DNA of 64,000 nt, from the sequence record PZ674596.1; one strand, given 5' to 3'. Each line of letters begins with the position of its first letter. Position 1 is the stretch's first letter. This DNA comes from a phage. Shown in pieces: positions 52,501 through 61,500 of the stretch. A program made the position numbers.

Positions 52501-55500
52501 GGAACGTCGAGGATGATAGCCTTCCATTGGAAGAGCTGCGCGAACAACTGGCAAGTCTCGACAAATACGCGACAAAATACCCTGATGCATTCAATGCAGC
52601 CTGCAAGTTACAAAGCCTTATGCGTGGCTTTGGTAGACATGCGGCAGGGATGATTGTAGCAGGTGTTCCTCTGACAGAACGTACACCGGTTGAACGACGT
52701 GGTGACGCGCGTTGTATCGCATTTGACAAGCGTTACTGCGAGGCTATGGGCCTAATTAAGCTGGACGTGCTTGGCCTGGCAACTCTCGATTTGCTCGATA
52801 GTGCAAAACGCTACATAAAAGAGAACACAGGTGAAGATATCAATCTTGATGCCATTTCTCTTGAAGATCGCAAGGTGCTGGATGGTTTTGCTGCTGGGTA
52901 CACTCAAGGTGTTTTCCAGCTTGAATCAGGCCCAATGCGCAAGCTGCTTAAAGATTTAGGTGGTGGAATTGAGCCAATGAGCTTTAAAACGGTCGTTGCT
53001 ACGACTGCGCTCTTCCGGCCGGGGCCAATTCAGTCAGGCATGTTGGATGATTATGTTTCTGTCGCCAAAGGCTTTATGACGCCGGAATCATTACACCCCG
53101 TTCTTGATGAACTTACCGCAGAAACAAATGGCGTGATTCTTTATCAGGAACAGACGATGAACGCGACTCGATTGCTTGCTGGCTTCACAATGGCTGAAGC
53201 TGACGGCGTTCGTAAAGCGATCGGCAAAAAAGACATGGAGAAAATGAAGAGCATGGGTGAGAAGTTCATCGTTCAGGCTCAAGCTGGCTGGATAGACGTT
53301 GAGCTGGAAGATGGCACTACACAGCGCATTCACCGTGCGGAACATTTTAAATGCGAAGACGGAACACTGAAAACTGTCGAAGAGGCACTTGAGTACGGCG
53401 CAAAACTACCTATAAACGCAGTACGCGTTACAGCGTCACATCCAGGGCTATCAGAGATGAAAGCGAAGGAGATCTGGACCGCATTCGAAAAGAATGGTGC
53501 CTACCAGTTCAACAAATCACACTCTGTTGCTTACTCCTTAATCAGTTATCAATCTATGTGGTTGAAAACTCATTATCCCGCAGAGTTTTTCGCTGCTGCT
53601 CTCACTATTCTTGGCGAAGATAAACACCAGGGGCTGGTTAAAGATGCGCTGACCTATGGTATTCGCGTATTGCCACCAGACGTTAACGTGTCATCTAACC
53701 GAATCGAGATCCGCACGCTTGAAGATGGCAGCCAGGTGCTGTATGCGCCCTTCTCTGCTGTGAAAGGGTGTTCTGAGAATGGCTGCCAAGCCATCATGAG
53801 AGCGCGAGAAAAAGTTGGCGGCAAATTCGAGTCACTGGCGCAATTCGAAGAAGCTGTCGAGAAACGTGCCTGTAATAGTCGAGTGCGCGAATCACTGCAA
53901 AAAGTAGGTGCGTTTGCATCCATCGAGCCAGGTAGTCTGCCAGCAACTGATCCAGAGCGTCTCCGCGACCAGGCTGAATTGATGGGAAACCTTGTCATAG
54001 ACGCAGTTAAAGCCTCACGTCCGTTTGAGATGAACCCCAAACGTTCGGCTGAAATTAACGCACTCATGACACGGATGGCGGCTGAAATGGGCTTAGGTGA
54101 TGAACTAATCCGCCCCAGCATTGGTATTAAGCCGAAAATCATGATCATTCTGGACAATGCGAACGGCAATGATGCTCGAACCGGTTACTTCATGGAGAAC
54201 GGATACGACGACTTTAAGGCCAAGCTATTGACGGCTGGAGATTTACGCATGGGCGATCTCTATGTCACAGGCGTTTGCAAGAAGGTTAAAGACAAAGAAA
54301 AAGACTACACCAAAGACGAGATCGGCCAGTTCACCGACTTTATACGTGAAGAGATCAATCTGGTGCGTCCGACCTATGTGCTGACGTGTGGCAGCCGGGC
54401 AACGGCATTGTTTAACAACAAAAACAAGCCATCCGATTTGGTCGGCAGGAAGGAGTATCTTCCAGACCTTGACGTTACTGTCTTTTACGGGTTTAACCCC
54501 AACATTCTTTACTTCAGACCTGAAGAGGGAGAACGACTAGAAGCGATATTAGCCGACGTAGCAGAAACTATTAAGACGTGATCCCATAAACATGGCCTCT
54601 ATGGCCATGTTTTCCCTTATCCCCTCATATCCCCTATCCTCGAACTCCTTGCCTTATCATCACAATGATATAATCAATATAAGATGATAAGTAAAAAGGA
54701 AAGCACATGATCACCGATATTTACGAGAAAATAATGTCTGATCTCGAGTTTGACCGAGACAATCTGGAGGAAGTCTGGCGTAGACAACCCCGCCTTTTAA
54801 TGGAGTATGGCTCAAAACTCGCTCATGCAGAAAGAAGTGTCGCAGAGGCAAAACTTAACCTTGAAGCTGTTGAAGCAAAGCTATACGACACAGAGCGTAA
54901 GAACTTGAGTATGAACGGCATTAAGTTCAACGAATCTGTACTGGACGCTAAGGTTAAAACAAACCCACAGTATCTGTCTAAACGGCAGAAGTTGGATGAA
55001 GCACGGCACATCGCAGACATATACAAACATGCTGTCGCCGCCTTTTCGCATCGCCGAGACATGATCGTTCAGGCGTCAAAGATGGCCATCGTTGAATTAG
55101 AGCGATTAGGCTCTGAACGCTTTATTACTCCCCGTTGATTTTTGATAGATAATAAGTAAGTACTGATCTATCATTTAACAGCTCGAAAGAGCCACGAATG
55201 AACGAAAGCCCAACGCGCATAGCGCCATCGGCCAAATCACAACAAGGAGAAACACATGTCTAAGACATTACTTGATTTGCTTAACAAAACTCGTGAAGAC
55301 ATTGCCGCCAAACGTGGTAACAACGTTGATCTGACTCGCTTAAAAGACGGCGTCAACTATATTCGCATCTTCCCGAATAAAGACGACCCAAACGGTAAGT
55401 TCTTCCAGACTTTCGGTATGCACTACGTTAAGTATCAGAACGAGGAAGGTAAAGAAGCAACCAACGCTTATATTTGTGAGCAACATACTCACGGTCGCGC

Positions 55501-58500: not shown

Positions 58501-61500
58501 ACAAGAAATACACCAAATCGCAGATCGTCGAGATGTATCGGGAGAAGCCACTGGCTGAAATCATTGCGGCTTTGCAGGCAATCGACGACCGAAGAGCAAA
58601 AGACAACCCCACCGAGTCAGTAGAAGAGTAAACACAAGGCGTCCACAGGACGCCTTTTTTATCTCTTGAAAATATATAAGTACTTACTTATTATTTTCGC
58701 ATAACAACCACATAGGAAAACACATGATCAAAATCTATCTATTGGCAGTAGCCACAGGCGTTTCAGTGGCTCTCATCTACGGTTTACTGGTTCCGTCGCT
58801 GATTTCTACCAAGAGTGATTTAGCCGTCATGTTTGGAGTTATCGTTGGTTTTGGTGCTCCTGTAATCGGTCTTATTGCTGGTCGTAAGTTTATCAACTCA
58901 TTAATCAAAGCAAAGGGGAAATAAGTAATGAAGAAAGGTTTACTTGCAGTTGCTCTGGCGGCTATTTGCACAATGGGTCTTACTGGCTGTGATCGCGTGG
59001 AGCCTGGATACGTTGGCATCAAAGTAAACAAATTAGGTGAAGACAAAGGGATCGGTGAAGTGGTTGGCGTTGGTCGCCAATGGACAGGTCTTAACACCGA
59101 ACTTTACGTATTCCCGACCTTCAAACAAATGAAGACCTACGACGAACCGTTCACATTCCAGATGAGTGACGGTACTGCTATTGGTCACAAAATTGGCGTT
59201 GCGTATCTGGTTAATCGTGACAAGGTAACGACGGTGTTCCAGACCTATCGCAAAGGCGTAGACGATATCACCGAATCAGATCTGCGTCAGAAAATTGCCG
59301 ACTCTCTAAACCGTTTGGCCAGCCGTATGACCACTGACTCATTTATCGACGGTGGTAAGGCGCAATTGCTGGACAACGCACTGAAAGATATTCAGAAAGA
59401 GATGTCTCCGGTTGGTATTGAGGTACTGAGCCTGTCATGGGTTGGAAAGCCTGATTACCCAAAAACCGTCATTGAATCTATCAACGCCAAAGTAACGGCT
59501 AACCAGCGTACTCTGCAACGTCAGCAGGAAGTTGAACAACGTAAAGCTGAGGCGAATATGCTACGTGAACAGGCTAATGGTGAAGCTGATGCTATCCGTG
59601 CTCGTGCGCAAGCAGAAGCAGACGCCATTCGTCTGCGCGGTGAAGCTCTGCGTCAAAACCCGAACGTTATGGAACTGGAAGCCATCAATAAATGGAATGG
59701 CCAGTTACCGCAGTACATGACTCAAGGGGCTAACACTCCTTTCATTACAGTGAAATAACTCCCCTAAAAAGTTCAGGCGTCCAGTTGGACGCCTTTTTTA
59801 TCGCAATTATCTTATTAAGAAAATAATTTGTTTAAAAGGATAAGAAAACATGACAGCTATTAAGAAACTCTACGATGCCGCAAACGTGGCTCTGGATGTT
59901 ATTGATGATGAAGCAGCAAAAGGCTTTCCTGAACCTGATTGGGCGCATCAGCTACGAAACGCTATCGCAGAAATGACCCCACCAGATCCAACCCCCGAGG
60001 AGACAGACTGGCAGCGATTCATCCGTATGTACGCTCAGGAAATAGGTCCAACGCCAACGGCAGAGCAGGCAATGCTGCTGAAATACTTCAAAGAGGCGGG
60101 AGAGGATTTACCAATTGATGACTCAGCATATTGGTTCCACTGCGCATGGCGTAAGTATGACGTGATATTCACACAAGGCATGGGAAGCAAAGATATGGTT
60201 GTGTGGCATCTACTCCATATAGACACAGCCGTTGACAGAGTTATTGAACAGTTTTTCCCTAAACAAGAAGATTGATCGCCTATTCATAACTAACAAAATA
60301 AGTAAACACTAACCACAAAAGGAAAAACACATGAGAGTTTTAGTTCGAATCGTTACCACCACTGTCTATGACGTGTTTCCGCTTTTTATGGTCAAAGTCG
60401 ATGGCCTTAACGATGAAGAAACTGACGCGCTGATCCAGCGTACTCTTGTTGAATATACAGGTCATGACGCTGATTCAGTGATGGTTGATGACGATGGTGT
60501 TTGTTGGCATAACGGCAACTGTTGGTACGTAGAAGAGACTCAACAAATCAGTAATGAAGATGCTGAACATCTTGAGCGTATTTTAAGCATCAGCACTTTT
60601 GAGTGAGTTTACAGTAAAGTTTATATAAGTTAGTATCTACCTATCATGAAGATTTTTATTGAATACTTGTTACTCATCGTTTCAATAGCTTTTGTCATCG
60701 ACTGCATTTTCACTGGTGTCATTCGTAAAGTCTTTTCCCCGGTGCACGACGTAGTCATAAACGCTTTGGCTATCGTGCTCGTATTTAATTCAGCATTTGA
60801 TGTAATCAAAGAGGTGGCAGCATGAAGACCATTCCATTCGCGCTGTTGTTTCTTTCTTCGATCGTTGTGGCCGACACCACTGTTTATCAGTGTGAAATGT
60901 CTGTAGCCGACGTTAAGAATGGCGCTCTTACCGACGTCATAAAAGCACCATATGGAGCGATGGTCGTAGACAGCGGCGACCAGTTCTATGTTGTGCGTGA
61001 CGATCGAGTGTTGTCATCCCCATATCTCACAAATCGTAATGGCAAATTAACCGGCGTCGGAGAAGACCACTTCGTATACAACAAATACAAGGGCTTCTAT
61101 GGCGTTCACGCTTCTCAGCAAAGCTACCTTTTCGATGACTGCAAGGAGGTTGGGTAATGGCATTAACACTGGCAGGTCTGGAAATCGAGAAAACAAGCGG
61201 CTACTGGCGTGCTAAGGGTTTCAAGCAGCCTGGCATTCTTGAGCGTCTGGAACGTGAAGATGGGTATATCGTCCACCAGCGGCGTGAATGGCGTATGTAC
61301 GATCCAGAAACAGGAAAACTGACTACAAAAGCCGGAACACTTTGGGGTCTGTTAAAGAAAATACACTAAATGCAAACTGACTGCGGCACGTTCCGCAGTC
61401 ATATTTCATAGTCGTCACCGCTGACAGCATACACAATCAACTACCGCTGATAGCATATCGAGAGTCTATCTCACCGCTCACAGCATACTTTACTCGATTT

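Follow-up and report, generated by a model that had tools for sequence, protein, structure and literature searches.

A putative presynaptic recombination cassette with UvsY-like, gp32-type, and RecA-like genes in an SSU5-type phage-plasmid

Between its dnaE gene and a strong intrinsic terminator, a 64,000-nt stretch of phage DNA (sequence record PZ674596.1; the whole stretch is hereafter called the window) carries a block of five + strand genes, whose predicted products are a UvsY-like recombination mediator, a gp32-type single-stranded DNA binding protein (SSB), a flap endonuclease, a small helical protein (here orf88), and a RecA-like recombinase. The block is likely, with a probability of about 75%, to be a self-contained presynaptic recombination cassette working like the UvsX/UvsY/gp32 system of phage T4; by analogy with that system, its most likely function would be host-independent loading of a recombinase onto SSB-coated single-stranded DNA (ssDNA). 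The window itself is assigned to an SSU5/pHCM2-type phage-plasmid of Escherichia coli because of its identities to sequenced phages and its matches among plasmids. Over the 4.1-kb stretch of interest it is 99.8% identical at the nucleotide level to Escherichia phage CMS-2020a, 97% to Cyrano (pLF82), and 81% to Salmonella phage SSU5, and matching sequence was found in 806 plasmid records, drawn from Klebsiella, Escherichia, Enterobacter, Yersinia, and Salmonella, almost all of them non-mobilizable replicons of ~110 kb. A first-pass annotation, made from the sequence alone, had proposed a four-gene recombination and repair module here. Gene families, the UvsY fold, and conserved motifs largely support that interpretation: all four of its open reading frames (ORFs) are found on the + strand where it had placed them, each with family support, but the block has five genes rather than four, and the start of the nuclease gene has been moved downstream.

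The 143-amino acid (aa) product of the first gene is assigned from its predicted fold, profile-profile comparison, and gene neighborhood. Its AlphaFold2 (AF2) model, built from a family alignment, has four helices, two of them ~50 residues long, with a predicted local distance difference test score (pLDDT) of 90. When this model was compared to the PDB with Foldseek, the 19 best matches were all T4 UvsY chains (4ZWQ, 4ZWR, 4ZWS, and 4ZWT) with a probability of 1.0, template modeling (TM) scores of 0.66–0.92 (0.72–0.92 for the ten best), and a root-mean-square deviation down to 1.4 Å over 130 columns; the first protein in the list other than UvsY has a TM score of 0.3. Identity to T4 UvsY in the structure-based alignment is ~13–17%. 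At the sequence level, the ORF strongly matches the unnamed phrog_2058 and weakly matches phrog_231, UvsY-like recombination mediator (E = 1.1e-4), and matches to phrog_231 recur among more distant family members. Comparison by hhalign of a 50-member broad family to the T4-type UvsY family gave a probability of 73% and an E-value of 3e-5 over 107 columns spanning both proteins, and Pfam UvsY, matched weakly by eight of the 50 distant members (best E = 7e-5), is the only family matched by more than one of them. Remote sequence homology to the T4-type UvsY family thus has moderate support, and we conclude from the model and the profiles that the 143-aa protein is probably a remote UvsY homologue with a UvsY fold, outside Pfam PF11056. 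Its close homologues (42–99% identity), in which the motif HRRDMIVQASK is invariant, are restricted to SSU5-type elements.

Conserved gene linkage extends well beyond these elements. IMG/VR was searched with sub-alignments of distant UvsY-like proteins, and the flanking genes were identified by phmmer and hidden Markov models (HMMs). A first lineage comprises 80 loci, on contigs mostly of ~100–120 kb, whose UvsY-like proteins are 24–30% identical to the one in the window. A 5' nuclease gene of the flap endonuclease (FEN) family and then a RecA-like gene follow the UvsY-like gene in the same order and orientation at each of the 54 loci that have 4.5 kb or more of downstream sequence. At 41 of the 54, phmmer detected a gp32-like gene in between; ten of the other 13 were tested, and all ten score above the Pfam gathering cut-off for gp32. 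The gene immediately upstream is dnaE wherever there was enough upstream sequence (58/58). In a second, more divergent lineage, on contigs of 35–100 kb, a RecA-like gene is found 1.1–2.6 kb downstream of the UvsY-like gene at every locus with enough flank (52/52); a single gene of 320–500 aa intervenes, and it was gp32-like in five of ten tested from among those not flagged by the profile HMM. Linkage that is invariant across such deep divergence is expected of proteins that work together. T4-type UvsY is a hexameric or heptameric ring that wraps ssDNA, binds gp32 and the recombinase, and stimulates filament assembly; the gene linkage is what supports a similar behavior of the 143-aa protein, which may act likewise.

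The SSB matches Pfam PF08804 over profile positions 1–208 of 208 (E = 1.7e-66; 224.7 bits, to a cut-off of 26.8), and phrog_1192 at E = 7e-116. It has a predicted zinc cluster, His56/Cys74/Cys83/Cys86, arranged as in the T4 gp32 zinc site and with a THG..CxxC segment that aligns with T4; an Ala/Ser/Thr-rich low-complexity linker; and an acidic tail, ...EDEGLDDLLRELDSL (LDDLLRELDSL), resembling the ...DLDDLLNDL of T4 gp32. A strict pattern for this tail motif, [LIMV][LM]x[DE..][LM], is found in at least 43 of 49 distinct related SSBs. In T4, the gp32 acidic tail is the docking site of UvsX, UvsY, and gp59 (PMC3016280). The N-terminus, MSKTLLDLLNKTRED..., has no clear T4 KRKST-type motif. A phmmer search of the PDB with the SSB found nothing, and BLASTP against T4 gp32 was non-significant (E = 0.07); the gp32 assignment is accordingly based on the Pfam profile and the motifs. 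The first-pass annotation had described a zinc-binding SSB-like protein with an acidic tail and, upstream of it, a helical protein that might be a UvsY-like mediator. It had tied its claim to homology of these two ORFs (54707–55138 and 55256–56284) with SSB and mediator families; homology was found for both, and the claim is thus not refuted by this test.

The recombinase, called RecA/UvsX-like in the first-pass annotation, resembles bacterial RecA more closely than it does UvsX: bacterial RecA structures give E-values of 6e-35 to 2e-30 (single chains), and those of phage UvsX, 1e-10 to 2e-9. By comparison with E. coli RecA it has kept the Walker A motif (GPPSAGKT), Walker B, the NQVR switch, loop L2 (KIGVMFGDPTTSPGG), and the KNK lysines. 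It scores 153.7 bits against TIGR02012 (the recA equivalog), well short of the cut-off of 325.3, and its PHROG label is UvsX-like recombinase. Judged by its sequence, it is a divergent phage RecA, neither UvsX nor a captured host recA, and not an orthologue. A separate observation concerns Cyrano and several plasmids, in which the RecA-like gene is interrupted, within the P-loop, by a 422-aa intein made up of Hint and a LAGLIDADG homing endonuclease; GPPSAGK lies on one side of the insertion and TFLATAAM on the other. At the equivalent site (57747–57752, codons K64/T65) the window has the intein-free allele, a potential homing target.

The flap endonuclease, first proposed as a 5' exonuclease, has 5'-3' exonuclease N and C domains that are both above the Pfam cut-offs (E = 1e-23 and 8e-12; 84.3 and 45.9 bits, to cut-offs of 34.3 and 40), and among solved structures the closest to it are the T5 D15 exonuclease and the 5' nuclease domains of Pol I (E = 1e-15). 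Its PHROG match is likewise to an exonuclease. The metal-binding motifs VDG, EADD, GDSDW, and GDxSDNI are intact in the alignment to T5 D15; the score is under every NCBIfam equivalog cut-off. The most likely start codon, as read from the sequence, is GTG 56345, which is preceded by a ribosome-binding site, GGAAGGA. An earlier GTG, at 56294, was rejected, because it lies upstream of a strong terminator hairpin that would then fall inside the coding region, and because SSU5 and Cyrano annotate this gene in a 945-bp form.

Several results weigh against the proposed cassette, or against parts of it. The 143-aa protein has no Pfam match at E ≤ 0.01, and none to PF11056 (UvsY) at E ≤ 0.1, and hhalign comparison of either family profile to the single T4 UvsY sequence was not significant. 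The Foldseek E-values for its UvsY matches are only ~1e-3, since helical hairpins hold little information. The “KARL” motif (LKARLDY) through which T4 UvsY binds ssDNA (PMC3016280) is matched only in part and in an insecure register: the family consensus is AKRxLD, and the better of two hhalign alignments places the near-invariant K49, L52, and E53 opposite T4 K58, L61, and D62, while the second run gave another register. The cysteine/zinc cluster is present in only about half of the 49 related SSBs. The recombinase is of RecA type, so a contact in the style of UvsY-UvsX cannot be assumed, and the literature searched yielded no biochemical or genetic test of the cassette.

The missing Pfam match and the modest Foldseek E-values could be read differently: instead of being a mediator, the 143-aa protein would be a long coiled coil or helical hairpin of a generic kind, such as a regulator or scaffold, with a chance resemblance to UvsY. 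It also has no match in NCBIfam, nor among PDB sequences by phmmer or with the family profile; it is a “hypothetical protein” in most public records (as, in plasmids annotated by the Prokaryotic Genome Annotation Pipeline, PGAP, are the SSB and recombinase); and some plasmid records label a gene within the 4.1-kb stretch “regulator.” Chance resemblance is nevertheless very improbable, given that the full-length structural match is to UvsY chains and nothing else (TM up to 0.92, with the next fold at 0.3), that the profile-profile match at E = 3e-5 runs over the whole length, that UvsY is the sole Pfam family to recur among distant members, and that the linkage to a RecA-like gene is invariant at 106 of 106 informative loci in two lineages.

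If the cassette does work like the T4 presynaptic system, whose mechanism serves here as the model (PMC3016280), the gp32-type SSB would coat ssDNA exposed by replication or by 5'-3' resection, the latter carried out by the flap endonuclease or, in relatives, possibly by SbcCD-like nucleases, whose genes (SbcD/SbcC-like) lie a few kb past RepA in Cyrano and SSU5, beyond the window edge. An oligomer of the UvsY-fold protein would then bind and remodel the SSB-ssDNA complex, probably by way of the acidic LDDLL tail of the SSB, and deliver the ssDNA to the RecA-like ATPase that the element itself encodes, the filament of which would perform homology search and strand invasion. The flap endonuclease might double as a remover of Okazaki primers and flaps, in the manner of T4 RNase H and T5 D15. 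What the analysis shows is gene content, families and predicted folds, conserved motifs, terminators, translational coupling, and synteny over deep divergence; we infer the protein-protein hand-off and the biological use, along with the transcriptional attenuation described below. Candidate uses would be recombination-dependent replication with formation of lytic concatemers, repair and fork restart independent of host RecA, and cyclization of injected DNA.

The first of these uses can be stated more strongly, as a special case of the presynaptic cassette: on induction, T4-style recombination-dependent replication (RDR) would replace RepA theta replication by D-loop-primed replication, with the RecA-like filament, a DnaB-like helicase, primase, and DnaE making concatemers for packaging. 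The parts list is suggestive. The helicase, primase, disrupted ligase, and RepA of the first-pass annotation are indeed found in the window, as a DnaB-like helicase, a Toprim primase, a truncated ATP-dependent ligase, and a Rep3-type RepA; the cassette genes lie directly downstream of dnaE at each of the 58 divergent loci noted above; the SbcD/SbcC-like genes of Cyrano and SSU5 are analogues of T4 gp46/47; and T4 RDR needs exactly such a set of recombinase, mediator, SSB, and nuclease (PMC3016280). To speak of a T4-like toolkit, as was first done, is fair as a description of the helicase, primase, ligase, and cassette. It is less apt for the polymerase partner, which is DnaE-type and not T4 gp43-type, and no gp59-like helicase loader was recognized in the window. 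The Rep3-type RepA could, moreover, suffice for replication, and the ligase is truncated in an element without sign of defect. The ligase ORF ends at 38019, ~71 C-terminal codons short of the 440-aa Cyrano ligase, because a 3.05-kb ISEcp1-blaCTX-M-15-wbuC unit has been inserted at ~38014 (to 41063) in the 3' part of the gene (region 36910–41063). Enterobacter phage LAU1 has a 100% identical unit, which Cyrano and CMS-2020a lack; near-identical elements circulate with the ligase either intact or disrupted, and this part of the toolkit is therefore dispensable. With these points on both sides, a switch to RDR on induction is plausible, but less likely than not, as a specific use for the cassette.

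Alternatively, the genes might divide between two tasks, the SSB and nuclease being lagging-strand and primer-removal accessories of DnaE, and the RecA-like protein and its partner serving host-RecA-independent repair, fork restart, or cyclization of the injected genome, in which case the latter two would be auxiliary, not central, to replication. The tight linkage to dnaE fits this, as does the nearest kinship of the nuclease, to Pol I 5' nuclease domains and T5 D15; a terminator separates the SSB gene from the nuclease-orf88-recA unit, which suggests that the two parts could be expressed separately; and the SSU5 supergroup's persistent genome includes RecA-like genes listed under “recombination,” with no replication role claimed (PMC7969092). 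The gene order points the other way: the mediator gene heads the operon together with the SSB gene, and the recombinase gene is always co-oriented within 1–4 kb, which argues for one functional unit. A division of labor of this kind is unlikely, and it differs from the presynaptic-cassette explanation in biological use only, so that the two do not really conflict.

Table 1. Predicted genes and regulatory features of the cassette, with the genes of the inserted resistance unit.
Feature	Position in window	Strand	Basis or detail
ISEcp1, IS1380-family transposase	38201–39463		
blaCTX-M-15	within 39659–40594		
Intrinsic terminator-like hairpin after dnaE	54588–54612	+	10-bp stem AAACATGGCC/GGCCATGTTT, then TTTTCCC; folding free energy (dG) -15.7, z -6.6
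Predicted promoter region	54653–54691	+	extended -10 TGATATAAT at 54666–54674
UvsY-like recombination mediator (putative), 143 aa, all-helical hairpin	54707–55138	+	predicted fold, profile-profile match, synteny
AT-rich inverted repeat in SSB gene leader (117 nt)	55143–55173	+	perfect; TGATAGAT-N15-ATCTATCA
gp32-type single-stranded DNA binding protein, 342 aa	55256–56284	+	Pfam PF08804, phrog_1192, motifs
Intrinsic terminator or attenuator	56301–56329	+	10-bp GC-rich stem, loop TACG, T5; dG -19.8, z -4.3
Flap endonuclease / 5'-3' exonuclease, 314 aa, start GTG 56345	56345–57289	+	Pfam PF02739 and PF01367
orf88, conserved small helical protein, 88 aa	57289–57555	+	phrog_2207; fifth gene, not in the first-pass annotation
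RecA-like recombinase, 357 aa, intein-free allele	57558–58631	+	Pfam RecA PF00154, E = 2.2e-42
Strong intrinsic terminator ending module	58636–58662	+	9-bp stem, T6; z -5.1

The layout of the block suggests how it might be expressed (Table 1). A hairpin with T-run follows each of dnaE, the SSB gene, and recA, as expected from the earlier description of the block as punctuated by terminators, and all three fold far better than shuffled sequences. The one after dnaE is the upstream border of the module. Transcription would begin at the extended -10 element, TGATATAAT, ~35 nt upstream of the first ATG; judging from its sequence and from its retention (as TGATATAAT or TGATAAAAT) upstream of the mediator gene in Cyrano and SSU5, this element presumably functions as a promoter. 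It is bracketed by a perfect 9-bp inverted repeat, CTTATCATC-N21-GATGATAAG (54653–54691), a possible operator. The AT-rich repeat in the SSB gene leader overlaps a weak promoter-like site (55146–55174), and either this repeat or the previous one might be an operator or a site of translational control; in T4, gene 32 is subject to autoregulation at the leader. The terminator in the 60-nt gap from the SSB stop codon to the nuclease start would probably act as an attenuator. Between it and the nuclease start, no promoter-like site was detected on the + strand, so the nuclease-orf88-recA unit is presumably expressed by read-through, and the mediator and SSB would therefore stay in stoichiometric excess over the nuclease, orf88, and recombinase. 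As an observation in its own right, the intrinsic terminators at 56304–56321, 58637–58655, and, past the block, 59775–59794 have a common stem, AGGCGTC...GACGCCT, with differing loops (0 expected by chance), which points to duplication or to some constraint that terminator sequences share in this region.

The ATG of orf88 overlaps the stop codon of the nuclease gene (TAATG), and 2 nt separate its own stop from the recA ATG; by this arrangement it is predicted to be translationally coupled to its neighbors on both sides. Homologues (70–99% identity) were found only in enterobacterial SSU5-type elements, and orf88 is not present in the divergent viral loci. The AF2 model is helical (pLDDT 79), with no fold match in the PDB or BFVD, and no Pfam, NCBIfam, or PADLOC-relevant clue was found. 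Its position led to consideration of a DinI-, RecX-, or PsiB-like RecA modulator; no evidence supported this, and it was dropped. That orf88 might be an accessory to the recombinase is a guess from its coupling to recA.

On either side of the block, the upstream gene encodes a DnaE with four Pol III alpha domains, and the downstream, minus-strand gene a Rep3-type initiator (both by Pfam). The order upstream, over 47443–54581, is a CobT-like VWA protein gene, a CobS-like AAA+ gene (MoxR-type), a small ORF, and dnaE, with the cassette following; CobS-like and then DnaE are also seen in the divergent viral contigs, the former at 51 and the latter at 77 of 80 loci. Past the cassette, 58724–60275 encodes a small membrane protein, an SPFH/Band-7 lipoprotein (58928–59758), and a DUF7238 protein (59850–60275), in units separated by terminators.

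The cassette is a common one, its identity is already on record for Cyrano, and what is offered here is a sound identification rather than a discovery or a new principle. Gene order in the block is the same in Cyrano (OV696614) and SSU5 (NC_018843) as in the window. The Cyrano record (in the European Nucleotide Archive, ENA, and curated independently) labels the products “UvsY recombination mediator,” “SSB T4 gp32-like,” “Exonuclease,” and “RecA,” leaving the small ORF between the last two unannotated; this annotation belongs with a paper (PMC9928086) in which the cassette is undiscussed. The SSU5 RefSeq labels are “single strand DNA binding protein,” “exonuclease,” and “recombinase.” Both relatives differ from the window in having an opposite-strand pair of genes between dnaE and the mediator gene, annotated in Cyrano as a HicA toxin and putative HicB antitoxin, and in SSU5 as a hypothetical protein and an “excisionase and transcriptional regulator”; the corresponding interval in the window is just a 126-bp spacer (54582–54706).

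A wider proposition is that the 143-aa protein typifies a huge and essentially unannotated clade of UvsY-fold mediators, partnered, in a cassette of fixed makeup, by a bacterial-type RecA and a gp32-type SSB. When 1.84 billion cluster representatives (clusters at 50% identity) were searched with a profile, 3,467 relatives were found at E ≤ 1e-3, and the clade includes PHROGs 2058, 1069, 9245, and 4969, all of “unknown function.” Many of its members (phrog_1069, 9245, and 4969) are proteins of 290–420 aa in which the UvsY-like domain is C-terminal to an extension of 150–280 aa, Ala/Pro/Glu-rich in consensus; a search of viral contigs with these long forms mostly returned the same ~110-kb phage group. 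No paper was found in the literature searched that describes UvsY-type mediators outside T4-like phages, or the conserved cassette. The proposition is possible and is offered tentatively. The clade would span temperate and ~100-kb phages far from T4, and UvsY-mediated recombinase loading, if it occurs throughout, would be a general phage strategy and not a speciality of the T4 family; it could then also underlie a switch of phage-plasmids on induction from RepA theta to recombination-driven replication. As a modest extension, the UvsY-fold family is far larger than current annotation suggests, and the fold and synteny evidence allows the UvsY-like and gp32-like labels to be extended to a PHROG and metagenomic family of very large size. 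In clinical Enterobacteriaceae, phage-plasmids of the SSU5 type are widespread, and the copy in the window carries blaCTX-M-15; recombination independent of the host could affect replication after induction, repair of breaks made by restriction or CRISPR, recombination with related plasmids, and gain of cargo.

Among known systems, the window nuclease has both Pfam domains and the acidic metal ligands in common with T5 D15 and the Pol I 5' nuclease domain, from which it differs in standing alone and in a C-terminus extending ~40 aa beyond the aligned region. Bacterial RecA with RecFOR accomplishes the same task, placing a recombinase on SSB-coated ssDNA, and the recombinase core, loop L2, and ATPase motifs of the window protein are RecA-like; the cassette, however, has no RecF, RecO, or RecR, its SSB is gp32-type instead of the bacterial OB-tetramer, and its mediator has a predicted UvsY fold. 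The T4 presynaptic system (UvsX, UvsY, gp32, rnh, and gp46/47) is the same functional set: common to both are a RecA-superfamily recombinase, a UvsY-fold protein of ~140 aa, a gp32-family SSB with zinc cluster and LDDLL tail, and a FEN-family 5' nuclease, and the SbcCD-like nucleases encoded near the cassette in relatives of the window would parallel gp46/47. In T4 these genes are dispersed, whereas in the window they form one operon-like block; the recombinase is nearer bacterial RecA, where that of T4 is UvsX; the mediator is outside Pfam UvsY; and the carrier is a temperate, siphovirus-type phage-plasmid, where T4 is a virulent myovirus. By this analogy, both the parts of the cassette and their likely interplay follow the T4 paradigm.

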